Assembly: GCA_052327205.1 (NCBI GenBank) | Contig: JBMRGM010000043.1 | Span: forward strand, 31,248,001-31,312,000 | Length of the DNA: 64,000 nt | Source of the DNA: Somniosus microcephalus | Taxonomy: Eukaryota | Direction of reading: 5' to 3' | Shown: one piece after another, positions 1,757 through 41,464 of the stretch | Numbering within the stretch: the first letter of the stretch is position 1 | Layout of the letters: the number at the start of each line of letters is the position of its first letter | Notes under the pieces: model-generated | What the model saw: the letters and a program-made list of their open reading frames with translations, nothing else | Databases searched by the model: none | Told to the model about the DNA's origin: nothing | Made by a program: the position numbers and the translations under genes

Positions 1757-2035
1757 AACTCTTCACCAAACCTAAACTGAGGTCTGAGCCTGCAGTTGAA
1801 ATACTTGAGGGAGACCAGTTAAAATTCATCTGTTTTATTGAAAATATACCGTCAAATATTTGCTTAAAATATTCATTTTACAAAAATGGCACAGCTCTGA
1901 TCTTGACCCCATACTACAAATATATTCTCACTGAGGCAGCTTCGTTGAAGGACTCAGGGACTTACCAGTGCGTAGCAAATGCTTTCGACTTTGGTGTGAA
2001 AAAGAAAAGTGATGAGGTTTACATTTCGGTAACAG
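1757..2035 (+). CDS. Gene 1 Ig-domain exon (FcR/FCRL D3-like C2-set)
   Basis: tcacAG|...aacag|GTatg, 279 bp, phase 1-1. Translates ELFTKPKLRSEPAVEILEGDQLKFIC...YSFYKNG...DSGTYQC...VYISVT. Not in the ORF track. Confidence 0.88.
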
Positions 2036-2589
2036 GTATGGACATCCAGCTTTAATTATTGTTCATCTTTCATTTAAAGAATTCTTCAGGGCATTATAGT
2101 TAAGTAACCATACCGGAGGGATCCGGTCTGGTAAAGGGTTAACCCTCAAGTTTATCGGACATAAATCAATTTGAATGCAGTCTTTTCAAATCTTATCACC
2201 ACGTGGCTCTTATACAATCCTCACATTTGCTGAAAACCGCATTTGTAGGAGCTACAAAGTTTGAAGTCCAGTGCCCAATCTCAGTGGGTAACATTAGCTT
2301 CCTTCAGTAGTGTGGAAATGGGCGATTATGAAATTGCCTCCCATTATTTGTCCCGCCCGTTTTTGCTTCCCATCATCTTCAGCAGACAGGAAAATCGTGC
2401 GTGGTGTACAATTGGCGCAAGTTTCGATATTGGAAATTTTACCCCATGGCTCCAAGGTAAAGATACTTGCTCTGTTTCTGTCTGGCTGAATGAGAAACCA
2501 GCAGAACCTGGTCAGGAATAGCAGGGTGTTTAATCAGACAAAGCCTTAGCACTTACTAGTCCCGGAAATCTTTGATAGTTGAATACTCG

Positions 2590-2722
2590 GGGGTAAAATT
2601 TAACTTTGAGAGCGCAGTAGCGGATCAGCAGACAATGGAATTGAAATTTGCCTGTGTTTATAACGGGAGGCCAATCTGCGACCACCGGTTTTGCACCCCA
2701 TCGAAATTTGAAATTTCACCCC
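2590..2722. mobile_element. Short MITE-like element with GGGG(T/G)xAAATTT terminal inverted repeats
   Basis: Left end ggggtaaaattt, right end aaatttcacccc. A paralog lies near 31773-31907; similar ends occur near 7048-7213 and 36411-36579. Confidence 0.4.
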
Positions 2723-3223
2723 GTCCAATTTCAGTAGAGGTGGAAGAGGATGAGGAAAAATGCCCGAGGTCACTAAAGTGTGAGCCTTTGATGCCCAGGA
2801 ATTCCGTTTCCACTCCGTTAGATCCGGTCAATCATAACGCTATCTTTGCATTTTCTATGGAGCAGGCAATCTGATGACAAGGTGGGAGTTATCGATCCTG
2901 TGTTGGGAGTGGATTTCCAAAGAATGGCATTGTCAGTTGCTGAGCTTCTAGCATGAATGTCGCAAAGTTTGCAGGCGCTGCAACAATGACGAAGGAGACT
3001 TCAGTATTTAAGGCCTGGGCGCAAAGCATCATCTCGGCAGAGAGCTGAGTTAAAATTCTGGATCAGGGGCGCGTTCTGGTGTTGTGGGCTAATCTCACAG
3101 GACCCGCAGGATGTGTCTTCCACTCAATGTTCCAAAGATTAACATTTGCTGCACAAATCCGAAATTGTAATGTCTGTGATAGTTGTGGAATCTGTCAAAT
3201 CCATAATTCGTTCTATTTTATAG

Positions 3224-3502
3224 AGCTCTTCTCCGAACCTGCTTTGCGGGCTGATTCTGGAGCTCAATTATTTGAGGGCCAACAGATAAAACTCGCCTGT
3301 TTGGTAGAAATATTTCGATCCAATTCTTCCTTGAGACTCGTATTTTACAAAGATGGACAACCTCTCAATTCAGCGGCAGACCACAGCTATTACATCAGGG
3401 AAGCATCTCGGCCGGAAGATTCGGGGATTTACCGGTGTGAAGCAACTACTTTGAACCGTGAGGTGAAGAAACTGAGTAATCAGGTTTCAGTTTCAGTCAG
3501 AC
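3224..3502 (+). CDS. Gene 1 Ig-domain exon (second FCRL D3-like domain)
   Basis: tttatAG|agctcttc...tcagac|GTgagt, 279 bp, phase 1-1. Translates ELFSEPALRADSGAQLFEGQQIKLAC...FYKDG...EDSGIYRCEA...VSVSVR. Confidence 0.9.
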
Positions 3503-4196
3503 GTGAGTACAATTTAAGATAATTGTTTATCACTTTTAAAGAGGACAGGAAAATCATAGAGAACGAGTAACGCTGATTCAACAGATGATGCCAGGGAATG
3601 GAAATTTTATTCAACAGGATAGACTTGAGCCACTGGGACTAACACTACCGGGTTTGCCATGCCTAAGAGTTATTTCATCAGTGCTTAGTACATGCCAATT
3701 GCGAGATAGGGCGATTAGGGAAAGCTATTCCCTCTGTTTGCGAAGACAGGAAGGAGGATCAGTAAAGTATAATTATCACTAAAAGCGAGAGGGTAGCGCT
3801 TACGTGAACATTTTATGTGTAGCTGACTGCTGGAAAGTAGAATTATTTGTCAGGTGGAACGGTGAAGTTAGATACCACTGCATTTAGGTAGAGTAATGTT
3901 TATGGTATTGGAATAGTGCAGAGTTCCTGCTTTTCACTAGCAGAGTCAGGAGGAATAAGGACCAGGCCAAAGTAGTAGGGTGGCCATAAGTGGATGGCAG
4001 TAGGAATCATTGTCGTTCCAGGATCAGGCTTTCCTCTATTAATTCCACCTACTGCTAAAGTAGGAGAGGGAGACGGGCGCCCAATATTGGTGTGGTAACC
4101 TATATGTCGAGCCTTCTTTATTATGATGAGAACCCTATTTCATTTTGAAAGTAATGCTACAAATTCTACAAAAGCAATGTAATTAACAATTTGCAG

Positions 4197-4484
4197 GAAT
4201 CCCAGTGTCAAAACCGGAACTGGCAATCAGCCCTGGTAAAGAGTTAATAGAAGGAGACACAGCGTCGTTAACCTGCTCAGTGTTCAACGGTTCTACCCCG
4301 ATTACTTACATTTTCTACAAAGACCCGGATAAAGAACTCTTCCGTGAGGAGTCCAACCTAACCGAAATTAATTACCAAATCAGTGAAATCAACCAAAGCA
4401 CCCAAGGGGATTATAGTTGCGGTGTTTCAAACAAAGCGACAGGACGTCCTCTGCAAAGCGATGTTGTTACAGTTTCAGTGATAG
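4197..4484 (+). CDS. Gene 1 membrane-proximal Ig exon (FCRL D4/D5-like)
   Basis: ttgcAG|gaatccca...gtgatag|GTgggt, 288 bp. Translates RIPVSKPELAISPGKELIEGDTASLTCSVFNGSTPITYIFYK...GDYSCGVSN...VTVSVI. Confidence 0.9.
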
Positions 4485-6337: not shown

Positions 6338-6439
6338 CACAAAGTCACACAACCGCGATCACAGCAGCCGTTCTTCCACTTTTTCTGATCGCTACCCTGA
6401 TTGCACTGGTTTCCTTCAAACTTCGGAAAAAGAAACAAG
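6338..6439 (+). CDS. Gene 1 transmembrane exon (uncharged TM)
   Basis: attccAG|cac...aaacaag|GTgagc, 102 bp. Translates AQSHTTAITAAVLPLFLIATLIALVSFKLRKKKQ: a hydrophobic helix followed by a basic stop-transfer stretch. Confidence 0.9.
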
Positions 6440-6966: not shown

Positions 6967-6997
6967 ACAATTCCTCAAGTGTTTCACAGCCGCAGGG
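6967..6997 (+). CDS. Gene 1 cytoplasmic exon 1
   Basis: tttatccAG|...caggg|GTaagt, 31 bp, phase 1-2, DNSSSVSQPQG. Conserved paralog at 35983-36013. Confidence 0.8.
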
Positions 6998-9028: not shown

Positions 9029-9120
9029 GGTGACAACTGAAAATAGATCTGTACCTCCGAGTGAAGAAACATCTGCGAGCAATTTCGAGTATGCAGTTGG
9101 GGGATCAGCCCCAAATACTG
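9029..9120 (+). CDS. Gene 1 cytoplasmic exon 2
   Basis: caaAG|g...aatactg|GTaagc, 92 bp, phase 2-1, which matches the flanking exons. Translates VTTENRSVPPSEETSASNFEYAVGGSAPNT. Paralog at 39349-39434. Confidence 0.78.
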
Positions 9121-10101: not shown

Positions 10102-10158
10102 CTTCTAGTTCTGATCAGGTAACCTACAGTTTAGTAGAAGGCACGAAGCCCATGGAAG
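10102..10158 (+). CDS. Gene 1 cytoplasmic exon 3, ITIM VTYSLV
   Basis: Polypyrimidine tract + tacAG|...ggaag|GTaagg, 57 bp, ASSSDQVTYSLVEGTKPME. Confidence 0.82.
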
Positions 10159-10862: not shown

Positions 10863-10907
10863 TAATCCCTCGTTTTTGACTTGTTTTCTCTTTTTGTTTC
10901 TGTTTAG

Positions 10908-10973
10908 ATATTACCGGAAATGCTGCCAATTTAGTGTATTCGGAGGTCACTATCAGAAAGTCACGAGACTGTG
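10908..10973 (+). CDS. Gene 1 cytoplasmic exon 4, ITIM LVYSEV
   Basis: Long pyrimidine tract + tttAG|...gactgtg|GTaaat, 66 bp, DITGNAANLVYSEVTIRKSRDC. Confidence 0.82.
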
Positions 10974-15346: not shown

Positions 15347-15378
15347 GTAATGATGGTGGCGCCTCAGGAAGGAAACAG
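15347..15378 (+). CDS. Gene 1 cytoplasmic exon 5
   Basis: tttacAG|gtaatgat...aaacag|GTaagt, 32 bp, phase 1-0, GNDGGASGRKQ. Supplies exactly the phase change needed for the last exon. Confidence 0.75.
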
Positions 15379-16861: not shown

Positions 16862-16990
16862 GCTAACAAGAATGGTCCCAACGACTATTGTGTCACATAC
16901 GCCATAGTTAACCGTGCAAACACTGAAGCTAGTTTGGAAGGAGGCCCAATGGAAGAAGGCTGTGTCTACGAAAACTTTCCACGGAAATAA
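16862..16990 (+). CDS. Gene 1 terminal coding exon, ITIM VTYAIV and YENF motif
   Basis: attccAG|gct...aaaTAA, phase 0. Translates ANKNGPNDYCVTYAIVNRANTEASLEGGPMEEGCVYENFPRK*. Candidate AATAAA at 17571 and 17667. Confidence 0.82.
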   Translation, partial: ANKNGPNDYCVTYAIVNRANTEASLEGGPMEEGCVYENFPRK

Positions 16991-20796: not shown

Positions 20797-20851
20797 GTAA
20801 AAAGACAACAGCACAGCGGGCTCAAGCGCAGGAAGATACCACTCAGCTACC

Positions 20852-23095: not shown

Positions 23096-23189
23096 AGAAC
23101 GAACTCTGAGTATGTTGCAGCCAAAGGACGTTTTCTTCAGGTTTATTTTGTATCTGTAGTGGTACAATGGAATTGTACCAAGCGGGGAG

Positions 23190-24149: not shown

Positions 24150-24446
24150 GGTACCAACCATAGAACTCTTTCAGTCGGCAAGTATATGTAATCAACATAG
24201 GCCTGTACGAGTAGGAGTATAAAGTTTGAAAAATGTTCCTGTAACAAAAGGACAGTATACTCACTAATCAAAGATCCGCAGCACTAGGACAATATAAACA
24301 GTCATTAAAATATCTGAGCCAGTATGACAGTTAAGTTATTAATCAAAGGCCTGTACCAATAGGACAGTATAGATAATGATTAGAGACCTGCAGCAGTCGG
24401 ACATTATAGGCACTAGTCATAGACCTGTAGCAAAAGGACAGATATT

Positions 24447-25141
24447 GGCCCAGAAATTCGGGTCTCCATGGGTGAGTACGCACGGGGTACTCACCAGTAA
24501 GGCCGATGGAAGTGCCGGTTTCCAGCATGCACTGCGCATTCGCGGGAAACCGGCACTTCCTTTCCACTGAAAGCAGGGGTTCAGAGGTCACGTGCGCGGG
24601 GGAGGCTGCGTGTGCGCATCTAACTTACGTTTTTCTTACAGGTTTTTCCGTGAGGGTAAGTCTGCAGAATTTAGAAATACAAAAAGCAGGCGTAAGGTCT
24701 GCTTCTTACAAGGTAAATGGTGAATTAATTAAATTAAAACATTTTTTTCCACAGGTTTATTATTTTTAAATACTTTACAGCTAGGTAAGTTGATTATTAG
24801 TCCCGTTAGAATAAAAAAATATTTTTTTCAAAAATTTCTATTATTGTTTATAAATAGTTATTCCTTGTCATTTATAGTTTGTTTAGTGCTATTTTGGGGC
24901 CGTAGCACTTCCTGTCAAGACTTATGAATGGAGCATTCCCTGCTCCAATTGGCTGCTCATGGCCCACGTAATCCCAGGGGACGCTTCAAACTAACTGTGC
25001 CCCTGGGATACGCAAGCACTGTGCGCCGGCAGTTTGACCAGGACCCGGATCGGAATCTCACGACTCAACCGCTGGCGCGCTAGGTTAGTGCAGATCAGGG
25101 GCTTACACCCGCAGGAAGCAACCGACCTACAATTCTGGGCC
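24447..25141. mobile_element. Non-autonomous DNA transposon/MITE (PIF/Harbinger-like)
   Basis: TIRs ggcccagaaatt / aattctgggcc, with 3-bp flanks att/aat. Absent from the paralog at ~52800. Same family as 59895-60660. Confidence 0.8.
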
Positions 25142-26835
25142 AATGTAATGAGCAATGACCGGCACCTCTAGGGCTATATATGTGCTAATAACGAACGGCA
25201 CGGTTAGTAAATTACAGGTTGCTTATCCAGTAGCTCTGTATCGGTCCCAGTCATAGACCAACACCAATGGAACTGTGCAGATTCTAATTAGAGTTTGCCA
25301 CAATATTATAGATTGGGTATTTATCGGAGATCTGTGCAAAGAGGACAGTATAGCTACTAATAGCTGGCCTGTACTAGAAGTCGTGTCTAAGTACTGATCA
25401 TATACATTCTGCAGTAGGACAGTCGAGGCAGCAATCATAGACCTGCACCAGTAGGTGATACCTACAGTGAGCCCGAGAGAGGAACAATATTGTGTGGCTC
25501 AAGGAGATGCCCCATTTAAGCCTCGTTTTGGGCTTCAGTTATTTGAGAGTCGAATCACCTATTTGCTAAACATTATTGACGGAATTAAGCTCTCGGGACT
25601 TAAATGGTTAATCATGCCAGGGTGTAACACCTCCCTTACCCCTCTACCGTTGTACCAGGCCACATACACAGAGCGGGAGTTGACCACTTCCCTAAGCCCG
25701 TGAAAAAAACAAGCCTTCACCCTGGGGCCACAGACCAGGCCAGTCTCTCTGTTAACGTTATAAACTGCGGTTAGAATAAATCATATTTGAAACAGTTTGA
25801 ACAGATTACTACGGCCTGGATTCCAACTGTTCGCTTCTGATAAGAATTCAGTTTAAAACTGACAGGGCTCAGGTAACTTTTCAGCGTTAGGGTGGATTCG
25901 TCATCGTGTCCGGTTTAATTTCCTCTTGGCTCCAATGTGGTCAGAAGTCACAGTGATCACAGTGTGCAGTCGGCTGGTGCATGGGCAGTGAGCAATACAG
26001 CTGCAGACTGCTCTCGGGGAACTCGCTCCAGCCGCTGTCTCCTCATTCCCCGTAAGTACCGACTCGGGATCTGCGCGTGCGTGCGTTTGGTAATGAAGAA
26101 GTCGAACAGTGTCAGCGGCTGAATGTGATTCTATGATATCAGTTTTCAGGTGAACAGAACTGAAAACAGCTGATCCGAAGCGCGGGTCTTCACAGAGGGA
26201 GGTGGACTGCTTCTCGGATCCCCCGCATTCGAAATGATTCACATCTGTCGCCTTCTGACCTTGTGTAAGTAAATCTCAAATATTTCCAGTGCCTTTGAAA
26301 ATCAACGTCACTCACCCCTGACCGTTAACCAGATTAATAAGACTCATTCAGTGAGAGGGTGCTTCACAGTAAATTAATATTCAGACTTTATTAAGGTCAA
26401 ACATTCAATTATACTGCATTGAAATGTCATTTCCATGCTTCAGTTTTAATCAGAATTTAGTGGAACAACAGAAATAAGTTTGATTAGTCAGGCAAACAGG
26501 ATCTTTCTGCTCATCTAAGGTTGCAGCCGACCTTAGTCACATCTAAACGGTCCAATATTTATTATTTCACCAATTATTTAGCCTCACCTGCAGAAACTGC
26601 TTGCACGTTTCTTATTGTTGTCGTTTTGTTTATTAGAAAAAAATAAATGTTTTATGCGCTTCATCTCAAGTATCAGAGTTGGCTCAGTTGACTCACTCTT
26701 ACAAATTGCTCTTAATACATGCGGTGAGATTTACAGTGCGTGGGTTCTGTGGCTAGATGTTAAACTTGGTCCATGTCATTGCTTGATGATTTCGTGTGCG
26801 GCAGGCACGCTTCTTGTTAACAACTGCCACAGTGC

Positions 26836-26869
<34 letters not shown>

Positions 26870-27003
26870 GGCGGAGCGGGAGAGGGAGTCAGTGCGAAAG
26901 ACAATCAGATAGGGACAGAGAGAGACAGATAGACAGAGATTGTAAGAAAGTAACAATTAAGCTGTCCACGAAGGAGAGTGACAGAGAGAGAGAGAGAGAG
27001 AGG
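26836..27003. repeat. (GA)n microsatellite region
   Basis: Runs of gagaga. Paralog at 54521-54672. Confidence 0.8.
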
Positions 27004-28037
27004 GCAGGAGTTTTTTTTTCAACTCAGTTTTGCAGATTCACGATGAAGGGCTGCTTTTATTTTCTGTTGTGAGGGAGAAAATAGACATTAACGGGACGAC
27101 AACACTTGAGTTAACAAAGCTGAGGAGAACATATTTACTATGATTATACTTGACCTAAACTGACGGCTTAAGGGTGTTTGGCAAGGAAATTTAAAATGCT
27201 GCATCTTTAAAATTAATTTCTGATGCTGTTTATTGGAATTTAGACAGAAATGACTCTTTATGGCCACAGGACATTGAGGCTGCCTTCCTGTGAGATGCTG
27301 ACGTCAGCGCTCTATTGGCTTGTTAACCACTGGATCACAAGCCCAGCAAACAGGAACAAACAACAGGGTTTGCATCTTTAATGTACCACCGACTCTTTCA
27401 CCAGAATCTCATCTATTTTAGTAACTTGACATCAGTTGTGGGACCATGTTGGTCACAGCTACTTCCACAGATTAATGAGGTAGAGCTTAAAATATGTGAA
27501 GTTAACCTCAAGTTGTTCATTCTTGAGCATATAATAGGCCCCATGATTTATTTGTTGCACAGCACATGAAACCCACTTTTTGGAAATATTGGCCTAACTG
27601 AATGCTTGAAACATTCACCCTATTGAATCCTAGCTGGACAAAAGTCCCAGGTTCTACATGTTGAACAATGAAATACAGACACATCTGCATTGACCATTGA
27701 CCCTTTTGCAATTATATTTGCAAGGTTTGCAGCAGCAGGCATTGCCTTAGTAGTCTGATTCCTGTGGCCTGAGGCGCGACAAAAGCTTCCTGCTGCTTTC
27801 TGCTGCTAGCGGCTGGGTCATGTATTGTCTTCACGAGTATCAGTTGCAACCCAGGTAATACTTGTGATTCTGAATCGATTAAAGATGAGTTAACTGATGA
27901 TAGGAACATACCAACAGGAGTAGGCCATTCAGCCCTTCGACGCTGCTCTGTCATTCAATTATATGATGGTTAATCTGTACCTCCACTCCAATTACCCCAC
28001 TTTGCTCAACATCCATTGTTACGCTTACTCAACTCGT

Positions 28038-28425
28038 GTCAGCCGTGGCTCAGTGTATAGCATTCTCGCCTCTGAGTCAGAAGGTTCGTGTGATTCCGGT
28101 CCCACTACAGGGACTTGAGCACAATCAACTAAGCTGATACTCCAGTGCAGTGCTGAGGGAGTGCCGCACTGTCGGATTGGCCGTTTTTTATAATAGACGT
28201 TAAAGTGAGGCCCCTTCCAGGGTGTTTATCCCTGGTGCCCTGGGCAATATTTGTCCCTCAATCAACATGACAAAAACAGATAATCTGGTCATTATCAACA
28301 TCATTGTGTGAACATTGGCTGCCACATTTCCTACACTGACTAAACTTTAAATGTCCTTCATTGGTTTTAAAACGCTTTGGGAAGTTCGGAGGTCTTGAAA
28401 GGCGCTATAGGAATGCAACTATTTC
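28038..28425 (+). mobile_element. Deu-domain SINE (SacSINE1-like)
   Basis: tRNA-like head (tggctcagtg...ggttcg), Deu core 'ctccagtgcagtgctgagggagtgc.gcactgtcgg', tail 'gaaaggcgctatag.aatgcaa'. Co-duplicated at ~50637, ~55708 and ~59250. Confidence 0.7.
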
Positions 28426-28995
28426 TTTCATTTTTTAACGAAGATCTATCGATCTCCGTCTTGGAAGTACCAATTTACCCGCAAAATCCACAGCGGTTTT
28501 TGTAAAGAGCGTTGAAATTTCTCACTACACATTGTGTGAAAAAGTGCTTCCTGATTTCCATCCTAAATGGCCTATAAACAATTTTAATGAAATATTCCCT
28601 TCTCCTTGACAGAACAATCACACTCATTGGCTCTCAGAACAATGATACATTTCAATATTTGTCAGTTTCCTTTCATCCGGCAGCAACTTTTCCATATAGT
28701 CCTCAGACCATGGGGAACTTCCACAAAATAACAATTTATCTTTGTCTGTGAGAGGGACAATTGGCATCATTCGATATATTAATATTTTACATTTACTTCA
28801 ACTGAACTGAATACCTCGTGGCATGTATGGACTGGCAGCAAATGTGTTTCCGCCTGTTTTGTGTCCCTGCCGAAGTCAAATTTCAACCCCTGGGTGTTTC
28901 CTCTATTCAGCTGCCTTACAGCTGAGCAGCTGAGGTCAAACTTGAAGATGGTCTCAGATAATGAAACATATTTTACATTGTCTTCTCTCTTGCAG

Positions 28996-29025
28996 TGCAA
29001 ATTACTCATCAGGCGACCACACAAG
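28996..29025 (+). CDS. Gene 2 candidate split-signal-peptide mini-exon (30 bp)
   Basis: ctcttgcAG|tgcaaattactcatcaggcgaccacacaag|GTatga. Read phase 1-1 it gives xQITHQATTQ. Splice sites are conserved in three copies. Confidence 0.6.
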
Positions 29026-29384
29026 GTATGATGACAATAATGTCCTTTATTGATAATAATCCACTTGTGGAATGAACGCTTCCAATTTATATCTATAGGA
29101 CAACAACAATCCAGCAATGGAGTAATTATCAGCTGTTCGCCCGTGCGTAAAACTGTGGTTCTGGACTCGCCACCTATGAGAAACTTTCGGTCATCATTTT
29201 CATTGATTCGGTGGGAATGTAAAGTGGGCGGTTTCTCTCACGGTCGGCCAATCAGAACCCCAGTTTTAAGCCTCGGCGCCAAGTTTAATGTCTACCACAA
29301 TATATTAAAGAAAAAGCGACCTAGAAATTTGTCTGTGTAACTGCTAGATCATTTAACTGTGGGTTGGCAGCGAGTAATCATAAC

Positions 29385-30615
29385 TGAGTAAATAAATGGA
29401 TGGATAGATAGACAGTTCTTTGTTGAAGTAACAGGGAATGCTAATCAAATTAGTGCAGTTCACTGTCGTGTATATAGACTTTCAAAAAATGCCTAATGAA
29501 GTACCACACAACTGATTTGTTCGCAAAAATCGTATTGTTATCATTGCGATTAAGGGGTACGGACAGCGTGGATAAGAAATTGTCTGAGACAAGGAAGCAG
29601 AGAATAGTTTTCAATTTTCGTTTTCTGTGATTGGAAGGGAATATTCAGTGTTATTCATAGTCATAGAGTTATACAGCACAGAAAGAGGCCCTTCGGCCCA
29701 TCGTGTACACGCCAGCCATCAAGCCCTATCTATTCTAATCCCATTTTCGAGCTCTTGGTCCGTAGCCTTGTATGCTGTTGCGTTTCAAGTGCTCATCTGA
29801 ATGCTTCTTGAATGTTGTGAGGGTTCCTGCATCTACCATTTCATGATGATATGGAAATATATGGAAAGCGTACTTATTCTGTGTCGCTTTTATGCTTTCG
29901 CTAGTAAATCTGATGGGAGAGTGCATGGAGCACACTCCGACCATTCTGTTCTGCAATGACATACGGGGTGGGAGGCGGTGACTAGTGGTGTTTTGCAAGG
30001 ATCAGTGCTTGGGCACCAGCTATTCACAATAAATATCAATGATTTGGATGAGGGAACCAAATATAATATTTCCAAGTTTGCTGATGAAATGACACGAGGT
30101 GGGATCGTGAGTTGTTATTAGGAGGCAAAGTGTCTTCAAGGAGATTTAGACAAGTTGAGTGAGTGGGCAAAACCATTGCAGATGCAGCATAACGTGGATA
30201 AATGTGAAGTTATCCACTTCGGTTGGAAAAACAGAAAGGCAGAGTACTAAATAAATGGTGATAGATTGGGAAATGTTCATGTATAAAGGGACCTGTGTGT
30301 CCTTGTACCCCAAACACTGAAAGCAAATATGCAGGTACAGCAAGCAGTTAGGAAGGCAAGTGGTATGTTGATATTCATTGCAAGAGGATTTGAGTACAGG
30401 AGCAAGGATGTCTTTCTACAGTTATAGAGGGCCTTGGTGAGACAACACCTGGAGTACTGTGTGCAGTTTTGGTCTCCTTACCTAAGAAAGGATGTACTTG
30501 ACATAGAGGGAGTGCAGCGAAAGTTCACCAGACTGGTTGCCGGGATGGCAGGACTGTCGTATGAGGACAGACTGGGTCGACTAGGCCTGTGTTCACTACA
30601 GTTTAGAAGAATGTG
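29385..30615 (+). mobile_element. Composite of CR1 fragments (with an antisense LINE tail at ~29655-29860)
   Basis: QGSVLG, SKFAD, VRQHLEYCVQFWSPYLRKD motifs with stops. Confidence 0.8.
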
Positions 30616-30941
30616 TGGATCTCGAAAATAGCGAAAAGAGCAAAGTTCTATTGAAGGATTCATACTTGAATAAGTCTTGCACAGCGTGGAGTTCCTGTAT
30701 CAGCAGAATATATTAAGCAGATTAAGTTCTCCGCAAACAAAGCAGCGAGTGGAAATCCATAACAATATAGTAATGCTGCCTACTGGAGTGTTCCACAATA
30801 CAGCTGCTGGTTACCATTTAGTACAGTCGCACCTCGTGGTGGTTCTTGGTATATCCTTGCTCTTGTTATCAATAATCTCTGCTATTTGTTTAACTATATG
30901 AGATGAATTCTTACCTCCCAATCCATATTCTGTTTTCACCG

Positions 30942-31218
30942 AACTCTTCTCCAAACCTAAACTGAGGACTGAGCCTGCAGTTAAAATATTTGAGGTAGAC
31001 CAGTTAAAATTCATTTTTTTATTGAAACAATGCTGTTCAATATTAGGCTTCAATACACATTTCACAAAAATGGCAAAGCTCTGCAGTTGAATTCATACAT
31101 CAACTCTAAGCACATGGGGGCAGCTTCTTTGAAGGGCTCGGTGACTTAGCCTTGTTGAGCAAATGCTTTCTACCACCGTGATAACAACAGAGTGATGAGG
31201 TTTCCATTACGGTAGAAG
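30942..31218 (+). pseudogene. Gene 2 dead Ig exon (paralog of 1757-2035)
   Basis: Acceptor CAG>CCG at 30939-30941, a 1-bp deletion removing the first Cys, and TAG/TGA in the DSGTYQC-equivalent segment. Confidence 0.85.
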
Positions 31219-32551
31219 GTAAATAGAACCAGCTGTAATTACTGTTCATCTTTCATTTAAAGAATTCTTCAGGGGATTATAGATAAATAAATATACGGGA
31301 GGGATCCAATGTGGAAAAAGATTTACTCCCAGCTTTATCACATAATAAATCAATTTTGGATGTGATCTGTTTAAATCAAAGCGCCACCTGGTTCTATAAA
31401 AAATCCATACATTTACTGAAACCCACACTTGTAATAGCTGCAACGTTTGAAGACCAGTGTCCACTCCCAGTGGCTAATATTAGCTTCCTGCAATAGTGTC
31501 GAATGGGCGATACTGAATTTGCCTCCCATTATATGTCCCTCCCGTGTTTGCGTCGCATCATTATCATTGGACAGGAACATCGTGCGTGGTGTACAATTGG
31601 TGCAAGATTCGATACCACGCGTTTTACACCATGGATCCAAGGTCAAGTTACCTCCTCTGTTTCTGTCTGACTGAATCAGCAACGAGCAGAACCTGGTCAG
31701 GAACAGCACGGTGTTTAATCAGACAGTGCCTTACCACTTACTAGTCCCGGCAATCGTTGCTAGCTGAAATCTCGGTGCTAAAATTTAACTTGGAGAGTGC
31801 AGTAGATAATTGGCAGACAAGGAAATCGAATTTCACCTGTGTGTAGATAGTATGGCCAATGAGCTACTACCGGTTTTGCACCCCAGACAAACTTGAATTT
31901 CCACCCCTCCAATTTCAGTAGAGGGGGATGACGGGGTGGCAAAACGCCGGAGGCTATTGAAGGCTGAGCCTCTGATGTCCGGCCTCTCGATTGCATTCAG
32001 TTAGAATCTGCCAATCATAACTCTATCTTTACATTTTAAAAGGAGCAGGCAATCAGAACACCAAGTGGGTGTTATCGATCCTGTGTCATCAGTGGATTTT
32101 CAAAGAATTGCATTGTCCATAGCTGAGCGTTTAACATGAATGTCCTAAAATGTGAAGGTGCTGCAACAATGACCAATGAGGTTTCAGTATTTAAGACTTG
32201 GGCATAAAGCATCGCCTGGGCGGAGAGCAGAGTCCAAAATCTGAGTGGGGGGAATGGGGTGGGCTGAAGAGGGATAATCTCACAGGACCCGCAGGATGTT
32301 TCCTCCATTCATTTTAACGGAAGGGTTAACTTCTCCCCAAATCTAGCCACGAGAGTATGTTCAGATGTCGGTGTTCCAAAATGCATCTTCCTATAAACCG
32401 AGTGCAATCAAGGATTATTGAACGGCTCTTTCTTTGAACCGCTGTCAGCATTTCATTGCTCTGATCATTAACTTGTGTTATCCAAACAAATACTTTCATA
32501 AATCTTTGAGAGATGCTTCAGCTGGTAAATCTATTTTTTACTCTTTTATAG

Positions 32552-32830
32552 AGCTCTTCTCCAAACCTACATTGAGGGCTGATTCTGAAGCTCAAATATT
32601 TGAGGGCCAACAGTTAAATCTCGCATGTTCGGCTGAAATATTTCGCTCCAGTTCGTCTTTGAGATATGTATTTTTCAAAGATGAACAAGCTCTCAATTCA
32701 GCGGCAGACCACAACTATTACATCAAGGAGACATCACTGCTGGACGATTCGGGGGTTTACCAGTGTGAAGCAAGTACTTTGAACAGTGAGGTGAAGAAAC
32801 TGAGTAATCAGGTTTCTGTTTCAGTCAGAC
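32552..32830 (+). CDS. Gene 2 Ig exon (paralog of 3224-3502), intact
   Basis: ttatAG|...cagac|GTgagt, 279 bp. Translates ELFSKPTLRADSEAQIFEGQQLNLAC...DDSGVYQCEA...VSVR. Confidence 0.85.
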
Positions 32831-33709
32831 GTGAGTACAATTTACTGTTAGAATTTAGCATCTTTCATCCACAAAATTCCCAGCAGGTTCGCACACGGGG
32901 ATTGATCCGTGAAGTAAGGGCCTTACCTATATGTTCAACATGCACTGAATACATAAATAACTAAATTATTGTCGCATAGACAACAGGGGAAAGGAAATAA
33001 TAGCATGTTTATACAACACATTCGTGAGGCCACAGATACTGTGTCCAATGTCTTGCCTTCCATTTTAAAGAGAACAGTAAAATCACAGAAAACGGGAAGC
33101 GTTGATTCACCAGATGACGCCAGGGATGGAAAACCTTATTCACCAGAATAGACTTGAGCTACTGGCACGAACACTACCGGAGTAGCCATGGCTAAGAGTT
33201 ATTTCATTACTGTTTATTACATGATAAGACCGAGATAGGGTGATAAGGGAATGGTATTTACTCTGATTGCGAAGACAGGAAGGAGGGATCATTGATGTAT
33301 AATTATCAATATAAGCGGGAGGATAGCTTAGAAGAACGTTCTTTATTCGAGGATTGCTGGAACAAAGAATGATTGGCCAAGTGGAGCAGTGGAGTTAGAT
33401 GCAATTGCATTTAGGTAGATAGTGTTTATGGTACTGGAATAGTGCAGAGTTAGTAGGAATCAGTACCAGGCCAGAGATAGTAGGGTGGCCACTAGTGGAT
33501 TGCAATAGGAATCATTGCAGTTCCAGAATCAGTTTTTCCTCTATTAATTCCACTGACTGCTGAAGTAGGAGAGGGGCACGGGCGCCCAAGATTGGAGTGG
33601 TAACCTAAATGACGAGGCTCTTTATTTTGATGAGAGCCCTATTTCACTTTGAAAGTAATACTACAAATTCCACAAAAGCAATGTAATTGACAAATGGTTA
33701 TATTTACAG

Positions 33710-33997
33710 GAATCCCAGTGTCCAAACCGGAACTGGCAATCAGCCCTGGTAAAGAGTTACTGGAAGGTGACACAGCGTCGTTAACCTGCTCAGTGTTCAA
33801 CGGTTCTACCCCGATTACCTACATATTCTACAAAGGCCCAAATAAAGAACTCTTCCGAGAGGAGTCCAACCTAACCGAAATTACTTACCAAATCGGTAAA
33901 GTCAACCAAAGCACCCAAGGGGATTATATTTGTGGTGTTTCAAACGAAGCGACCAGACGTCCTCTACACAGCGATTTTGTTACGGTTGCAGTGCTAG
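33710..33997 (+). CDS. Gene 2 membrane-proximal Ig exon (paralog of 4197-4484), intact
   Basis: ttacAG|...gtgctag|GTgagt, 288 bp. Translates RIPVSKPELAISPGKELLEGDTASLTC...GDYICGVSN...VAVL. Confidence 0.85.
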
Positions 33998-34499
33998 GTG
34001 AGTTATTATAAATACCTCTGAGGCAGAACGAAACAAGTGACTCAGTGAGAACAGTCCGGGAATCACTGCTTTTGCCAATAGCTTGGACGTTGTAACATCT
34101 TCTTTGACATTCTTCTGTGTGAAGTGAGGCACTGCGCCATTTACATTAAACAGGTGAATGCCTAAAAAGAACAAGAATGTCATCTGATTGCATCAAGTAT
34201 TGGTCTACAAACTGCAACTGTTAGTTGTAGATTTAAAACGGCCGATCAGTCTGTTTAATTGACAAATTGAGAGAAGTTATACGGAGAGGTTAATGACGAC
34301 TCAAATCTTAATACCATCGGCAGTAATTTTTGGGCTATAAATTTTAGAACATCATCTCTTAACCGTAGCTGCTAATACTTTTGTATTTGTATATGGGATT
34401 GGGCGTCGCTGGCAACATTTGCTTTAATTGGCCATCCCTAATTGCCCTTGAGAAGGTAGTGGTGAGCCACCTTCTTGAACCGCTGCAGTCCACGTGGTG

Positions 34500-34973
34500 A
34501 TCATCCAAATTCAGTACCCTGTCCCTGCTTTCTACCCACATCCCTTGATCCTGTTAGCCTTAAGCAACATATCTAACTCCTTCTTGAAAATAATTAATGA
34601 ATTGGCCTCAACTTCCTTTTGTGGTAGAGAATTCCACAGGTTCTCCACTCTCTGGGTGAAGAAATTCCTCCTCATCTCTGTTCTAAATGGCTTACCCCTT
34701 ATCCTTAGACTGTGACCCCTGGTTCTGGACTCCCCGACTATCGGGAACATCCTTCCTGCATCTAATCTGTCGAGTCCTTTTAGAATTTTATACGTTTTAT
34801 TGAGATCCCCTCTCATTCTTCAAAACTCCAGTGAATATAAGCCCAATTGACCCAATCACTCCTCATACGGCATTCCTGTCATCCCAGGTATCAGTCCAGT
34901 TAATCAGCGCTGTACTCCCTCCATGGCGAGAACATCCTTCCTCAGATAAGGAGAACATCCTTCCTCAGATAAG
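34500..34973 (-). mobile_element. CR1 3' fragment
   Basis: Minus ORF 34532..34816 (MRGDLNKTYKILKGLDRLDAGRMFP...). A 23-bp tandem duplication sits at its 5' junction (34928-34973). Confidence 0.88.
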
Positions 34974-34975
34974 TT

Positions 34976-35163
34976 ACTTGAGGGCCAACAGTTAAAACTC
35001 GCCTGTTTGGTTGAAATATTTCGCTCCAGTTCAGCGGCAGACCACAACTATTACATTAAGGAAACATCACGGCCTGACGATTCGGGGACTTACCTTGGTA
35101 AAGCAACTACTTTGCACAGCGAGGTGAAGAAACTGAACAATCAGGTTTCAGTTTCAGTCAGAC
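34976..35163 (+). pseudogene. Extra truncated copy of the second Ig exon
   Basis: EGQQLKLACLVEIFRSS joined directly to SAADHNYYIKETSRPDDSGTYLGKA (internal deletion, second Cys lost). No acceptor; the donor GTgagt is retained. Confidence 0.8.
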
Positions 35164-35356
35164 GTGAGTACAATTTACTGCAATTATCTATCATCTTTCA
35201 TCCACTAAATTACCAACACATGCACACAATGGGATTCTTCATTCTGGCACAAGGCTTATCTATATGTTTAAGATGCACTGTATAAATAAATGAATATATC
35301 CGTACATACTTGAAACCGTATTATGTTATTCATGGGATATGTTTATTTTATTCCAG

Positions 35357-35458
35357 TGCAGATTCACACAACCGCGATCAGAGCCTCAGTTTTTACACTT
35401 TTTCTTGTTGCTGCCCTGATTGCACTGGTACTCGTCAATCGTCCCAACAAGAAACAAG
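35357..35458 (+). CDS. Gene 2 transmembrane exon with Arg
   Basis: ttccAG|...aaacaag|GTgagt, 102 bp, VQIHTTAIRASVFTLFLVAALIALVLVNRPNKKQ. Confidence 0.85.
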
Positions 35459-35982
35459 GTGAGTCATGTTTTACAGGCAGGTGATTGGCTCTATAGTCAC
35501 GTGAAGGGCTTCAGTGTATTCTATATTCAGTTGCGACATTCAAAATGCAACCATATTATTTGGGCAAAAGAGGGATAGTCTGGGCTGGAAAAAGAAAAAT
35601 GTTATTTGAAATGACGATCTCAGAACAGACAGGAGCTTAAGACTGGGGCGAATTTGCCCAGTTAAGTGTTTTTATTTCCCTTTGTGCTGTTCAGAATTGA
35701 TATGCATGTGGCCGAGGGGTAGAACAATAAGTGGCAGCATCATTCGTGGTTAGTGTGAGGAGACGATGCATCCTAAAGGATTTGTAACGCGGTATATGGT
35801 AATATCTTACATGTTTCTGTATATCTTTTCTGTATTGATTCTGTATTAATAAGTCATTTAATGCACGTTTGTAAAAGTTTAGATTTAATGTGAATGAATA
35901 CGTTTGCAGTTAAACAAATCCACCTGTACAGCAATATTTATTGTACAACTTGCTGAAGTAGGTCTCTTCCTGTTTTATCCAG

Positions 35983-36013
35983 AAAATTCTTCAAGAATTT
36001 CACAATCGTTTGG
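35983..36013 (+). CDS. Gene 2 cytoplasmic exon 1
   Basis: ttatccAG|...tttgg|GTaagt, 31 bp, ENSSRISQSFG. Confidence 0.78.
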
Positions 36014-36934
36014 GTAAGTCCACGCAATTTTTAGCTGAATAAGCCATAGCTATATCCCTGAATATACTCAGTCTCTGTATAGCTGAACTAAACGCGGTAA
36101 ATGCTTGTGCGGTAGATTTTATCAATTGCATTGAACTTTAATCTGGCATTACGGATCAGCCTCCTGTTATAGAAAACACCATATTTTAATTTAATTTGAG
36201 TTGAATGGGATTGAAAAACATGTGGTTTCTACAACGCGTGTCTGTTCTGCTACACCACTTTTTATTCCGGGCACCGAGTTGGAAAATCTGCCCCATTGAC
36301 GATAAGCCTTTACTGTAGCTCGCACTCAAACGATTACACTCCCTGCAGTCTATAAGGAGTGATCATTTTCTAAGTTATGTCAGTTGTACCTGAACTTCCT
36401 AACTTAAACAGAGTGAAATTCGCCCTGCGTGGCACAGTAAAAGGGGTGATTACAAATCGTTTTACAGTCCGCAGATTAGATTCCAGTGACTTGTAAACAA
36501 ATATTGGGCGGAGTGTAAAAACTGTTGGAGTTTCGTTTAACCCTGCTCTCCACCACCGCCCAAGAAGAAATTATACCCCAAACTCTTCAATCACTCAGTG
36601 AGCTGGACTATTCTTTAATCCTCCAATTTAATCCTCATGTAAATCACAGGGACCTGAAGCATTCTAGGATTTGGTGTGCAGGGCGATTGCGCATGTAGTT
36701 AATTTTAGTAACATTCACACAGTGACTATCTCAGGCAGTGGTCCATTTAACTGAACAAGCTTTTCTGGATACAGTTCTACTATTGATCAGCTTGAACAGT
36801 GTTTGTTGGCTTGGAATATCTAGTCCCCTTGTGAATCCAGTCGCTGTTTATTTTCCGACTCCCCTATGCTGGACATCATTCCACATGTGTTTTAACCTCT
36901 GACTGAATGTTGCTTGAACTTTCGATACGCTTGT

Positions 36935-38335
36935 GTGGCCCTCAATTTGAAACTGTGGCACTCTTCTAGAGCTTCGGTATGGAAGCACATCTCTATACGC
37001 ATTACCCAATCCTGTCATAATCATAAATAATAATTTTTAAAACTTCTCCATCTTCTTTCAAGATTGATTTTTTTTTAAATTACTCCAACTCCTTTCAAGG
37101 CTTTATCTCCCTGGTTTTGTAACTAATCTAGTGACCCAGCCTTTATATTCAACAAGCGTCTAGTATGTTTCTCTTATTAAAAAGATATCAACATTGTATT
37201 CACTGCGCCAGATGTGGGACATCTGCTGGGCAGAGCACAGAAAGGAAGATCTGGTCGGAATGATCTCTTGCTGAAAGCAGAAACGCTTGATTTCTGTTCC
37301 ATTAAGTACCGTGAAAGGAAAATCCTGCATGTTCTGTAAAAGATGTGTTAACCTCTCCACCATATTCTCATCTTTGCATTCCTTCAACATGATTCTTAAC
37401 AAACAAATGGCAGGAAAAATCATTGATACCCCATGAACTTGCATCAATACCAATTATAAATTTACGGTTATCTTTCTTGATTTCTGTGGCCCTCAATTTG
37501 TAACTGTGGCACTCTTCTTGAGCTTCGGTATTAAAACGCATCTCTAAGCACATTCCACCATCCTGTCATAATCATAAATAATATTTCAAAAAACTTCTCA
37601 TTCTTCTTTCAAGACTAATTTTTTCAAAATACTCCAACTCCTTTCATCACTCTGTCCCCTTGGTTTTGGAACTAATCTAATGATCCTGCCTTTACATTCA
37701 TCAAGAGTCTAATATGTTTCTCTTATAAAAATGATATCAACACTGTACTCACTGCGCCAGATGTGGGACATCTGCTGGGCTGACAGCATAACGTATGTTC
37801 AGTTGGAAGGTATCCCTTGCTGAACGCAGAACCGCTTGATATAAACACATATAAAACACATCTGTATGCACATTTCCCAAAAACCTCTTAATCATAAATA
37901 ATTATTGCTAAACTTCGCATTATTCTTTCAAGACTGAATTTTATCACAATACTCCAACTCCTTTCAAGGCTCTATCGCCCTGGTTTTGAATGTAAGCTCG
38001 TGACACGCCCTTTATATTCAACAAAAGAATCAATGTTTATTTTATTAAAATGATACCAGCACTGTACTCCCTGCGCCAGATGTGGGACATCTGCTGGGCA
38101 GAACACAGAAAGGAAGCTTGGTTGGGAAGGAGCTCTTGCCGAAAGCAGAACCACTTGCTCCCTGTTCCATTAAGCTGCGTGCAAGGAAAATCCTGCCTGT
38201 TCTGTAAATGATGTGTGAACCTCTCCACCAGGTTCCTCTTTGATTTCCTCCAACGTGATTTTTAGCACAAAAATCATAGAAAAAATGTTTTTAACAAAGG
38301 ACATGCTCCAATACCAACTATAATTTTAAGGTTAT
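36935..38335. repeat. Three diverged tandem copies of a ~300-550 bp unit
   Basis: The core 'ctgcgccagatgtgggacatctgctgggc' occurs at 37203, 37752 and 38071. 'tactccaactcctttca' also occurs three times. Confidence 0.85.
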
Positions 38336-39348
38336 CTCCCGTGATTTATAAGTTACACGGTGGTGATATATCTCAACATTCTCTACAGTTCCTAATTCAC
38401 TTTCAACACTGCACCCACTTTTTTTTTTAAACTGATACCCAAATATCAATGATACATTCTTCCTTTTATTTGGTATTGAATCCTCCCTTCCATTTAGGAC
38501 ACAATGGGTCAAATTTGCTTTTCCAATGGAGTTGAAAGCAGGTGGTAAGGGATGGCCGGCCAGTTTTACACACAGCCTACTTTCCATTTCCAAAATCGGC
38601 TGGAGTGTAAAACGAGCGGCTGAGCCTTTACCACCCATATTCTGCTGGACGGTAAAAGTGAATATTAACTTCAACTTTCCAACTTGCCGCTCGGGCATAA
38701 ACTGCCATTTCTGGTCAGCCGTCCAATTGAGATTGCGCCCGATTATCCTGTGAAACAATTTCGAAGCTATGAAAATCCGGCGAGTGCTGTTTCTTACTGC
38801 CCAGCAGTAATGTGGATCATATACCCCCCGCCAGGAGACACTCTTACTACGTTACAATCTTCAACCATAATCAGTATAACTTAATTTGGGGCCGCAGCAC
38901 ACAGCGAGCACTAACGAATCTATTGCACATTTTGGACTCGACCGATTTTATTTTCCATAAATTTCAATGGATCAAAAATGATCTAGAGGATTTCTAAATG
39001 GACAGCCGATTCGCTACATTTCGCTTTGCGGTGTCTTCAAGGACCAATTTCTACCAAAGTGAGTCATGATAATGGAAATCTGGAAAATACCTGAGGTAAT
39101 TCAGGATCTGCTGAGAGAATGACGTTAGACCCCTGGGGAGGAAAGTGCCACGGATCGGCAACCTGTCTACCTTGAGCTTCTTCAACTGGTCCAATGGATG
39201 TGGACTTGCAAGTTTAAGGTTATGTCTCTTGTAAACTGCTTGCTTGTTTTTGATATTTATTCTACTATTTCATCTTATTTGAAAGTAAAATTTCCGTTGT
39301 CCACGATTATTGTTAAACTTTAATCTCTGTGAACATTTCCGCACTTAG

Positions 39349-39434
39349 GGAGGCAACTAGAAACAGACCTCCAAGTGAAGAGAATTCTGCAGACAATTCC
39401 GAGTCTGCAGGTGTGCGATCAGCTCAAAGCACCG
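39349..39434 (+). CDS. Gene 2 cytoplasmic exon 2 (Tyr lost)
   Basis: cacttAG|g...agcaccg|GTaagt, 86 bp, phase 2-1. Translates EATRNRPPSEENSADNSESAGVRSAQST. Differs from gene 1 by an in-frame 6-bp indel and TAT>TCT. Confidence 0.75.
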
Positions 39435-39699
39435 GTAAGTTCAACCTGATCAGCATGTGATGAACCGTAGATTGTTTGGGGTAACATTTCCATCGGAAGT
39501 TCTCTCCAATATCGTTATCACTTCGGCAGAAGTTAGGCTACAACTCCAGAGAGATCACCCTTTCTGCAAGTTTTCCACGGAAATTCCACCAACGTTACGA
39601 CGAGACATTGGGAAAAACCACATAGAGTTTCTATTTCCTTCTCTGCGTACACTCAGCACAATCTAGCGTTAGGTTTTCTTCTTCACTGTCTGGATATTG

Positions 39700-40400
39700 A
39701 CCTATTATATCTCTAACATTATCTCAAAGTCTATGTCAATGGCTGGTCTACATCTATATCTGTGTCTATGTCTATGTCTCTCTCTATGTCTATTCCTATC
39801 TCGAACTCTATGTTGATCTCTATGTCCACCTCCATCAATCAGTCTTTACCTATCTCCATATCTATGTCTAGCTCTATCTTTATATCTCTACTTCTTTATC
39901 CACCTCCATCTCTCTATCTCTACGTATATCCCAGTCTCTCGCAATCTATCATCATGCCTCACTATATTTCTTTACATTTATCTTGCTTTCCATCGCTCCA
40001 TCTCTCTCTCTATCTATCTATTTGTATCTATCTCTATTGATCACTCTGTCTTGCTGGTTACAACTCTATCTCTCTCTGTCTATGTCCATTTAGATATCGA
40101 TCTCTAGCTCCCCTATCTCTACGTCTATGCCAGACTCTTTCTATATGTTTATGCACCTCTATTTGTATCAAATAATTTATTAGTATCTCTATCACTGGCT
40201 CTAGTTATTTGTCTACCAGTAACTCCAAATTTATGTCGGTCTCAATCATCTCTCTGTCTCTGTGCCTATCAATATCTATTTCGATTTATATCCCTCTTTC
40301 TCTATATTCTATCTCTATCTTTATCTCTATCACTATCACTATCTCTGTCTCTATCTCTACCTCTGTCTAAAATCTCTACTCCCTATCTCTTTCTCTAAAC
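39700..40400. repeat. Expanded degenerate (TCTA/TCTATC)n low-complexity tract
   Basis: About 700 bp of tc/ta-rich repeats, which produce spurious S/I/L/Y-rich ORFs. Confidence 0.8.
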
Positions 40401-40424
40401 CGTCATTAATCTCTGATATTACAG

Positions 40425-40465
40425 TCATACTCTTATGGACACCTGTTGCTTGCGAAACTGTGTAA
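40425..40465 (+). CDS. Gene 2 candidate terminal exon
   Basis: attacAG|tc ata ctc...gtg TAA in phase 1 gives VILLWTPVACETV*. AATAAA follows at 40497-40502. No paralog support. Confidence 0.45.
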
Positions 40466-41464
40466 ATCCTGAGTGAAATATGATGGCTCTCTACAGAATA
40501 AAATTGTGCCTTATGTAAAGAATCAAAGTTAAGTTATACTAATATTGCAGTTAATTTACTTGGATACTCTTAAGAGCCGAGATGGATTTCCTTCTCCACC
40601 ACTCGGTCGAACGAAATAAAAGTGATCTTACTGTCCTTAGATATCTTTTTCTTAATCTTTATATTCGATCTGATAATTAATTCCTTGTGAAAACATATCA
40701 AACGAGTAACAGAAATGGACTCAAAATGTGCAATACAATAGAGAATTTTGCATTGATAGAATGTTAACTTCCTTTCATGGAAAGTTTGAATCTTCTGACT
40801 GTAACGAGGCCCATGTGACATGAATCATCAGCAACTGGAAGGCAATCGAGAGCCTGAGCACCAAGAAGATAAATACAGATGTTCGGAGTCTACAGGAATC
40901 TACAGAAAATTCTGAAGGCAATAGTTGAAGCAAGCATGTTATTCCTACAAGTAACTAAAGAACGATATTGCTGGGGAGCACCTCAGTTCGTGATGTTCAT
41001 TCAAAGCAAAAACTGTCAATCGTCACGATTCAACCACGATTTGGATTTTTCTTCACAAGAGCCTCTATGTACAGAACCTGATTCATTTCATTGCTGTATA
41101 CAGCTGTTGATGCCTCATCACAGAGAATAAGGGGCCCAAGTTGAATAACTTCAGCATCTGTTTCTGGATGTAGATGCCATGAGGCCAATGATCTAATGAA
41201 ACTTTTGATAAACTAGCTTCCTGACTGTGCCTGAAATATTTTCATTCTGACCTAAATGACTTTCGATCGCTTGGACATTTCGCTTGTATACGCCAGATTA
41301 ATAACTGCTTACCTCCCAGATGTTTCGGGACATCTTCTGATTGATTGATTTCGCCTGGAGTTTCTGTATTGGTACTAATTGTCTGCTTATAAACCTGGAT
41401 GTATCATTTCAGCTACTGAAGAATTGGATTAGGTTCTGGACAGTTTCATGTGTAAGCCTTATTC

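Follow-up and report, generated by a model that had tools for sequence, protein, structure and literature searches.

A hybrid shark Fc receptor-like gene joins inhibitory outer domains to an old arginine-bearing membrane cassette

We analyzed a stretch of 64,000 nucleotides from Somniosus microcephalus (the window; positions 31,248,001-31,312,000 of contig JBMRGM010000043.1, here C43, in a 6.45-Gb genome) that holds two Fc receptor-like genes built from immunoglobulin (Ig) exons. Gene 1 carries an uncharged transmembrane (TM) segment and inhibitory motifs of the immunoreceptor tyrosine-based type (ITIMs), whereas gene 2 carries a TM arginine and a short tail. We found that gene 2 is not a point-changed gene 1 but a recent recombination join between the front of an inhibitory paralog, T2, and the back of an Arg-TM gene, R1, and that the Arg and the short tail entered it together as one old cassette. 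The window is probably one unit of a shark FCRL-type cluster in which this cassette has been recombined onto the outer domains of ITIM genes, likely giving activating twins that would use an FcRγ- or CD3ζ-type adaptor. The paired-type receptor system proposed in an initial annotation is real, but it is richer than in that first reading and has a different history; its signalling role is predicted from sequence.

The two sources of gene 2 and its exons are as follows (window coordinates).

24147-34500, forward strand: front half of gene 2, a copy of inhibitory paralog T2 (C43:30,900,446-30,914,305), 99.3-99.4% identical
26234-26264, forward strand: leader exon S1, 31 nt
28996-29025, forward strand: leader mini-exon S2, 30 nt
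30623-30627, no strand: scar of a 3.5-kb deletion private to the window copy, which removed Ig exons D0 and D1
30942-31218, forward strand: broken IgA-type exon (no AG acceptor, frameshift, stops), also broken in T2 and in all hybrids
32552-32830, forward strand: Ig exon IgB, 1 nt from the inhibitory copy T2d
33710-33997, forward strand: Ig exon IgC, 95/95 aa identical to T2
34495-34500, no strand: intronic T2/R1 junction, flanked by a short repeat and a LINE fragment; the two sequences share ~3 nt there
34495-43501, forward strand: back half of gene 2, a copy of Arg-TM gene R1 (C43:30,842,416-30,851,447), 98.9% identical
34929-35163, forward strand: broken IgB-type exon remnant, inherited from R1
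35357-35458, forward strand: Arg-type TM exon, the same as in R1, with Arg codon AGA at 35380-35382
35983-36013, forward strand: cytoplasmic exon c1
39349-39434, forward strand: cytoplasmic exon c2, Ser at 39404-39406 replacing Tyr
40425-40502, forward strand: last exon, stop at 40463-40465, AATAAA at 40497-40502

T2 (30.90-30.93 Mb) itself runs on into an uncharged TM exon and ITIM exons, and R1 lies at 30.82-30.85 Mb. IgB of gene 2 matched T2 at 88-91 of 92 residues; its IgC, which does not differ from that of T2, matched gene 1 at 81 of 95, and its TM exon was 100% identical to R1 as against 77.5% to gene 1. Hybrid and inhibitory paralog are near-identical in their ectodomains and opposite in their tails: the paralog has ITIMs, and the hybrid has a short tail behind a TM with a charged residue. 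Given the parental order R1-T1-T2 (T1 being gene 1), a tandem duplication of 71.9 kb running from the last ectodomain intron of R1 to the IgC intron of T2 yields this exact join. Six hybrids were examined (at 30.43, 31.07, 31.14, 31.21, 31.28 and 31.69 Mb), and in the stretches read their exons were open and their GT-AG splice sites intact. The loss of D0 and D1 was confined to the window copy among these six, and IgB was missing from two others. Assembly error is an unlikely source of the hybrids because they share one junction yet carry private indels and 0.1-0.6% differences, although the copy number may still be inflated. A further recombinant type was seen at C43:31,369,293-31,399,682 and 31.59-31.61 Mb, where T3-like D1/D2 and a broken D0 are joined to the remaining exons and Arg TM of R1.

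The initial annotation had taken gene 2 as the partner of gene 1, derived from it independently by three concordant point or deletion changes. Its underlying observations held: the Ig exons are similar and the signalling parts differ, and all three differences are real. The TM exon of gene 2 reads QIHTTAIRASVFTLFLVAALIALVLVNRPNKKQ, and that of gene 1 reads QSHTTAITAAVLPLFLIATLIALVSFKLRKKKQ, with the Arg codon AGA corresponding to the Thr codon ACA at 6361-6363; TAT at 9090-9092 in c2 of gene 1 corresponds to TCT at 39404-39406 in gene 2 (Tyr>Ser); and no homolog of the ITIM exons of gene 1 was found in gene 2. The derivation itself has next to no chance of being correct, being refuted by the T2/R1 structure, by the TM exon that follows R1 and not gene 1, and by an Arg that is older than the split from Heterodontus. 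The closest inhibitory relative of gene 2 is T2 and not gene 1, and its Arg and short tail arrived in one step.

Gene 1 proved to be the inhibitory receptor that had been described, with an uncharged TM and three canonical ITIMs, VTYSLV (10119), LVYSEV (10931) and VTYAIV (16892), besides a terminal CVYENF (16961). Its leader exons, two in number, and six further Ig exons lie upstream of the window; counted with these, its Ig exons number nine, and all are open. Its exons have GT-AG ends. Within the window it has the following exons.

1757-2035, forward strand: Ig exon IgA, FCRL D3-like, seventh of nine Ig exons
3224-3502, forward strand: Ig exon IgB, FCRL D3-like
4197-4484, forward strand: membrane-proximal Ig exon IgC, best PDB match FCRL5
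6338-6439, forward strand: TM exon, uncharged type, with Thr codon ACA
6967-6997, forward strand: cytoplasmic exon c1
9029-9120, forward strand: cytoplasmic exon c2, FEYAVG, with Tyr codon TAT
10102-10158, forward strand: ITIM exon VTYSLV
10908-10973, forward strand: ITIM exon LVYSEV
15347-15378, forward strand: cytoplasmic exon c4
16862-16990, forward strand: last exon, with the VTYAIV ITIM, CVYENF and the stop

Spliced as first proposed, with leader exon S1 added, gene 2 encodes 295 aa in an unbroken frame: two Ig domains, the TM Arg and a Tyr-less tail. All four proposed junctions follow GT-AG and leave the frame uninterrupted; none was confirmed by an RNA read. Ligand binding probably depends on D0 and D1, so the window copy, which has neither, has likely been weakened or made blind to ligand, and it is one of the less complete members of the receptor system.

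We examined the age and spread of the Arg cassette across 30 TM loci. In 21 of them the TM carried the Arg with a VN(L/R)PxK juxtamembrane motif, and the other nine were uncharged with FKLRK. Gene 2 thus shares its Arg with other loci; the initial annotation had named an Arg private to a decaying copy with dN/dS near 1 as a finding that would refute it. The Arg is not a chance residue either, because it was fixed in 8/8 distinct Arg-type TM exons and occurred in 0/33 non-Arg rows of the alignment. A Heterodontus protein, P0098 (XP_067878457.1), has a family-B ectodomain with 53-57% identity to the Somniosus gene B-act (described below) and the same TM type (VLGIRIAVLTLFLTASLIALVFVNLPNK), so conservation of the TM Arg elsewhere in chondrichthyans is borne out to the extent of this record, the only one among 229 fetched proteins. 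Some 50 further homologs from sharks and rays in which a TM was present had the uncharged kind, and tyrosine motifs occurred in nearly all of them; these protein searches were bounded by a word index and length windows. In a tree of TM plus c1 (43 rows), the 10 Arg rows, including Heterodontus, formed one clade with support 100/96, or 99/94 when the Arg column was removed, and Arg, Asn and Pro residues were present in 10/10 Arg rows and 0/33 others. The other forks of this tree were poorly resolved because it has only 50-51 columns. The Tyr>Ser change was confined to the R1-type tail, and other Arg tails keep SEYAAV, SEYAGV, SEYEAV, SEYAVV or SKYTGV.

The same cassette sits behind different ectodomains. 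The seven Ig exons of R1 are 88-96% identical per exon, at the nucleotide level, to those of an inhibitory gene, T5 (25.43-25.48 Mb). In a second ectodomain family, B-inh (25.60-25.66 Mb) carries ITIMs and a TM of another kind, and B-act (25.27-25.30 Mb, with a duplicate at 30.27-30.30 Mb) carries the Arg; the two exons compared are 93-95% identical between them at the nucleotide level. Together with the hybrids and T2, this gives three inhibitory/Arg pairs that differ in age (hybrids/T2, R1/T5 and B-act/B-inh). One old cassette has been reused, in three separate graftings. An orphan Arg TM and tail cassette was also seen on the reverse strand at C43:21.50-21.52 Mb, 3.7 Mb from the cluster, with no Ig exon within ~24 kb upstream.

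The outermost domain varied in an unusual pattern. Among seven T2 and hybrid copies, 12 of 249 D0 sites were variable, compared with 35 of 4212 intron sites (Fisher p = 6e-6), and across nine copies all 14 variant codons changed the amino acid, with clustering at codons 31-35. One identical D0 was common to the inhibitory copy T2d and the hybrid designated c1. These sites are not independent, because the copies are related and exchange sequence. The pattern resembles that of LILRB3/LILRA6 as given in passages of PMC3894450.

Candidate adaptors are encoded in the same genome. Two exons of the TCR_zetazeta type with a TM Asp were found, one of 104 nt on contig C14 (CD3ζ-like) and one of 92 nt on contig C40 (FcRγ-like), the sizes of CD247 and FCER1G exon 2. 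The 92-nt exon sits in a minisatellite-rich locus at C40:10.52-10.64 Mb. A DAP10-family match on contig C3, the only one in the genome, looks like chance. Judged by its TM and tail, gene 2 is likely an activating partner. Of the proposed paired inhibitory/activating system, the anatomy stands, with three pairs and adaptor-like exons, although the pairing of gene 1 with gene 2 does not. ITIM genes would recruit SHP-type phosphatases and inhibit, and the Arg, placed towards the outer end of the helix, would pair with the Asp of an FcRγ- or ζ-type adaptor dimer. Inhibitory and activating twins would bind the same ligand, and pathogen mimicry of that shared ligand would drive both the D0 changes and a rapid turnover of activating copies.

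Several observations pull against this interpretation. Heterodontus is the one other species in which the Arg type was found (1/229 proteins). An Asn at -3 of the Arg (NxxR) occurs in one of eight Arg types (31,540,893, a damaged gene) and not in the Heterodontus protein. The older Arg genes are mostly damaged: the gene at 25.37 Mb has no Ig exon that we could find, that at 21.5 Mb is the orphan, B-act has a broken c2 acceptor, and those at 31.51, 31.54, 30.56 and 30.78 Mb have a broken donor or frameshifts. The ratio pN/pS was 0.9 among Arg TM exons, a value that says little because it reached 1.9 among uncharged ones. The absence of synonymous changes among the 12 in D0 has p = 0.06 when taken alone. 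ITAM (immunoreceptor tyrosine-based activation motif) exons were not located; for the FcRγ-like gene, the stretch examined covered ~90 kb on its downstream side and includes a 500-N gap. Finally, two RNA runs from unstated tissue, of which 24% and 31% were read, gave zero depth on IgC, TM and c1 of gene 2 and no splice joint; the IgB bin reached ~2x depth in one run only, and the runs showed repeats and almost no exon reads. This RNA result is weak because T2 and R1 reads were equally unseen over IgC and TM.

Damage to older Arg genes is expected of short-lived activating receptors, which are established for KIR, but it is also expected of decay. The hybrids could accordingly be by-products of unstable segmental duplication that are open only because they are young, with most Arg genes becoming pseudogenes and at most B-act or R1 working. 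The copies differ by only 0.1-0.6%, too little time for visible decay; the window copy has lost D0/D1 and two hybrids IgB; and the broken older Arg genes and the missing RNA point the same way. We nevertheless regard such an origin as unlikely, given that the diagnostic residues of the cassette persist in Heterodontus, that D0 variation is concentrated, amino acid-changing and common to inhibitory and hybrid copies, and that one cassette was grafted three separate times.

The position of the Arg bears on whether an adaptor is engaged at all. It is residue 3 of the best 21-residue hydrophobic window, in line with the adaptor-linked reading. The best 19-residue window puts it just outside, which would suit an Arg that only snorkels at the outer membrane face; such proteins would need no adaptor to reach the surface and would serve as competitors that do not signal, or as receptors with a dual function. 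Seven of eight Arg types lack the Asn at -3 and most Arg tails keep one SxYxxV motif, in keeping with that idea. It seems to us distinctly improbable, however, as the homologous uncharged exons have a Thr at this place, inside the helix, the Arg is fixed while its neighbors vary, and the R1 tail has lost every Tyr.

By sequence, the domains are FCRL-type. Pfam Ig_2 or Ig_3 scored above cut-off in all six Ig exons scanned. A full-length homolog queried against PDB gave FCRL5 at 198 bits, FcγRI at 84 and FCRL4 at 79, with no LILR or KIR among the 34 PDB sequences at E<=1e-8, and the IgC query gave nine-domain FCRL5 at 130.8 bits, FCRL4 at 36.4 and LILRB1 at 30.6. A quick domain tree (129 domains, 88 columns, no LILR rows) placed IgA/IgB with FCRL D3 (SH-aLRT 90), D1/D2 with FCRL second domains (91) and IgE with the FCRL terminal domain (96), but left D0 unplaced and IgC unresolved between FCRL and PECAM1 d6; the Ig-domain phylogeny suggested earlier thus supports the assignment for the former domains and not for the latter two. 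A predicted Heptranchias D0-D1 model (pTM 0.47, hinge not reliable) gave mixed FcR and LILR matches: LILRB4 came top in VIA (Z 14.8, rmsd 3.1, 166 aligned) with FCRLA D2 at Z 12.9, and FcγRII came top in Foldseek. The leader exons measure 31 and 30 nt and depart from the 30/21 nt rule of FCRL/FcR genes; according to passages of PMC2413239, only a fraction of the Xenopus XFL genes, whose exons are given as 30/21, obey this rule. NCBI automatic names already label shark homologs Fc receptor-like, so that their existence is on record.

Automatic naming labels several shark homologs PECAM-like, the Atlas feature search ranks PECAM clusters first, and IgC falls between the two families; we considered whether these are adhesion/ITIM genes related to PECAM1 or Allergin-1. 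This is most improbable: PECAM1 proper maps elsewhere (C21:69.8-69.9 Mb), FCRL proteins outscore PECAM1 in the protein search (295 and 197 bits vs at most 150), and the IgA/IgB, D1/D2 and IgE groupings are with FCRL domains. At C21:69.78-69.93 Mb the PECAM1-like exons fall in two sets, suggesting a duplicated PECAM1 or a neighboring relative.

The genomic position is that of another family. The receptor genes, dozens of them, form clusters on C43 at 25.27-25.66 and 30.27-31.88 Mb, and between these lie LENG8 (26.27 Mb, E 2.5e-33), a gene with CCCH and MJ1316 domains (26.32 Mb) that we call LENG9-like because LENG9 has this domain make-up, and a third tweety gene (26.89-27.08 Mb). The last is TTYH1 by elimination, because the genes on C21 and C11 are TTYH2 and TTYH3; best-hit naming was mixed, with one exon matching TTYH1 only and two exons TTYH2/3, at low scores, so its identity rests on this elimination and on LENG8/LENG9. 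PRPF31 is at C43:16.29 Mb. In mammals, passages of PMC6557307 have Ttyh1-Leng8-Leng9-Cdc42ep5 separating the receptor clusters of the leukocyte receptor complex (LRC), and the shark cluster is LRC-like by position in that its parts flank LENG8/LENG9/TTYH1 in the same way. Against this stand the location of CNOT3 on C28 and not C43, the marker-to-cluster gaps of 0.6 and 3.2 Mb, which are mostly unread, and a linkage known from one genome. Linkage to markers of the 1q23 type was not found for PRCC (C41), the FcRγ-like gene (C40) or PIGM (C5); DUSP23, IGSF9, SLAMF8 and ETV3 were not searched. We class the genes neither as FCRL proper nor as LILR/KIR, because each of these fails a tested feature.

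Around these markers, the tweety gene is strongly diverged and a late exon of it occurs twice (27.02 and 27.08 Mb), a small Maf-type bZIP gene lies on the reverse strand at 26.288 Mb between LENG8 and the LENG9-like gene, and a retroelement beside LENG8 has long open gag- and pol-like frames. Two Ig exons on the reverse strand at C28:42,237,325-42,242,946, ~190 kb from CNOT3, weakly match FCRL5, FCRL4, OSCAR and the HIDE1 Ig family and may be a second remnant of the LRC region. The LRC has been placed on a proto-gnathostome microchromosome (passages of PMC8302630). We put forward only tentatively, and with more doubt than belief, that sharks keep the ancestral FcR/LRC state, with FCRL-type paired receptors and their own Arg-based activating module at the LRC site, that LILR/KIR and FCRL/FcR arose from one such cluster, and that the Fc or MHC receptors long sought in sharks are among these genes.

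As to the extent of the cluster, the IgC exon had at least 43 genome matches, from a scoring of 150 among 331 candidates; C43 held 39 of these, at 25.3-25.6 and 30.3-31.8 Mb, and the TM exon and last ITIM exon queries had 40 and 27. All close relatives found came from sharks and rays, which supports the assignment to a cartilaginous fish. The window belongs to a repeat with a ~71-kb unit in which an inhibitory gene 1 copy and a hybrid were amplified together, and the next gene 1 copy begins near the window's end.

56961-63754, forward strand: start of the next gene 1 copy (S1 at 56961, S2 at 60921, D0 at 62245, D1 at 63494)

Orphan leader exons without Ig exons at 48333 (S1), 51589 (S2) and 53928 (S1) are remnants of further genes in the repeat unit. 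Between genes 1 and 2, at 19837-24150, lies an internally deleted Pao/BEL-type long terminal repeat (LTR) retrotransposon whose two 961-nt LTRs are 99.7% identical, and which is absent at the matching place near C43:30,900,450. The region C43:30.27-30.66 Mb is in part a copy of the 25.3-Mb cluster and in part an inverted copy of neighboring genes (compared with 25.27-25.36 and 30.70-30.90 Mb).

Paired Ig receptors with a charged TM residue in the activators and rapid birth and death are known from teleost LITR, KIR2DS, chicken CHIR and skate MDIR, the last being V-type relatives of CD300/pIgR. In the passages of PMC2413239, LITR share only D1/D2 with XFL. The same passages describe XFL as an expanded cluster with FCRL-type domains shuffled between genes, a two-exon leader and two TM types, one with an Arg near its N-terminus and one uncharged with tyrosine motifs, all as in the shark; Xenopus FCRL with the N-terminal Arg (XFL TM1) associate with FcRγ. 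XFL TM1 has NxxR and is described there as homologous to LILRA-type TMs, whereas the shark Arg exon has as its sister the uncharged TM exon of its own family (~80% nt), and the Asn is mostly absent from it; XFL genes adjoin SLAMF8/IGSF9/DUSP23, whereas the shark genes adjoin LENG8/LENG9/TTYH1. Human LILRB3/LILRA6, in passages of PMC3894450, are alike in their near-identical ectodomains with shared amino acid variants, LRC position, copy-number change of the activating gene and exchange by unequal crossover. Unlike them, the shark genes have FCRL-type domains, up to nine per gene, a junction at a repeat boundary with little shared sequence, and amplification of the whole 71-kb inhibitory-plus-hybrid unit. 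Tetrapod FCRL1-6 and FcγRI are the best sequence and local-structure matches and share ITIM tails, but the shark cluster is unlinked to PRCC, the FcRγ-like gene and PIGM and has an N-terminal D0 without a placed counterpart.

In the passages we consulted, reviews from 2014, 2017 and 2026 hold that cartilaginous fish have no FcR-like molecules; two of them also deny an FcR gamma chain, and any LRC homolog is denied by one. A spleen atlas of the nurse shark lists no Ig Fc receptor among its cluster-defining transcripts (PMC10529500). The passages searched of PMC6795676, PMC4536121, PMC8302630 and PMC8455134 do not describe this cluster, and full-text literature outside subscription journals and supplements yielded no account of the Arg clade or of the shark cluster's LRC position. 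Where published surveys deny such a system, the cluster supplies named candidates for shark Fc or NK/myeloid receptors, and its FCRL-type domains at an LRC position bear on the proposal that the FcR and KIR/LILR families share an origin. One genome here shows how activating partners may arise: different inhibitory ectodomains received, at three ages, one old signalling cassette, which was then amplified or lost.

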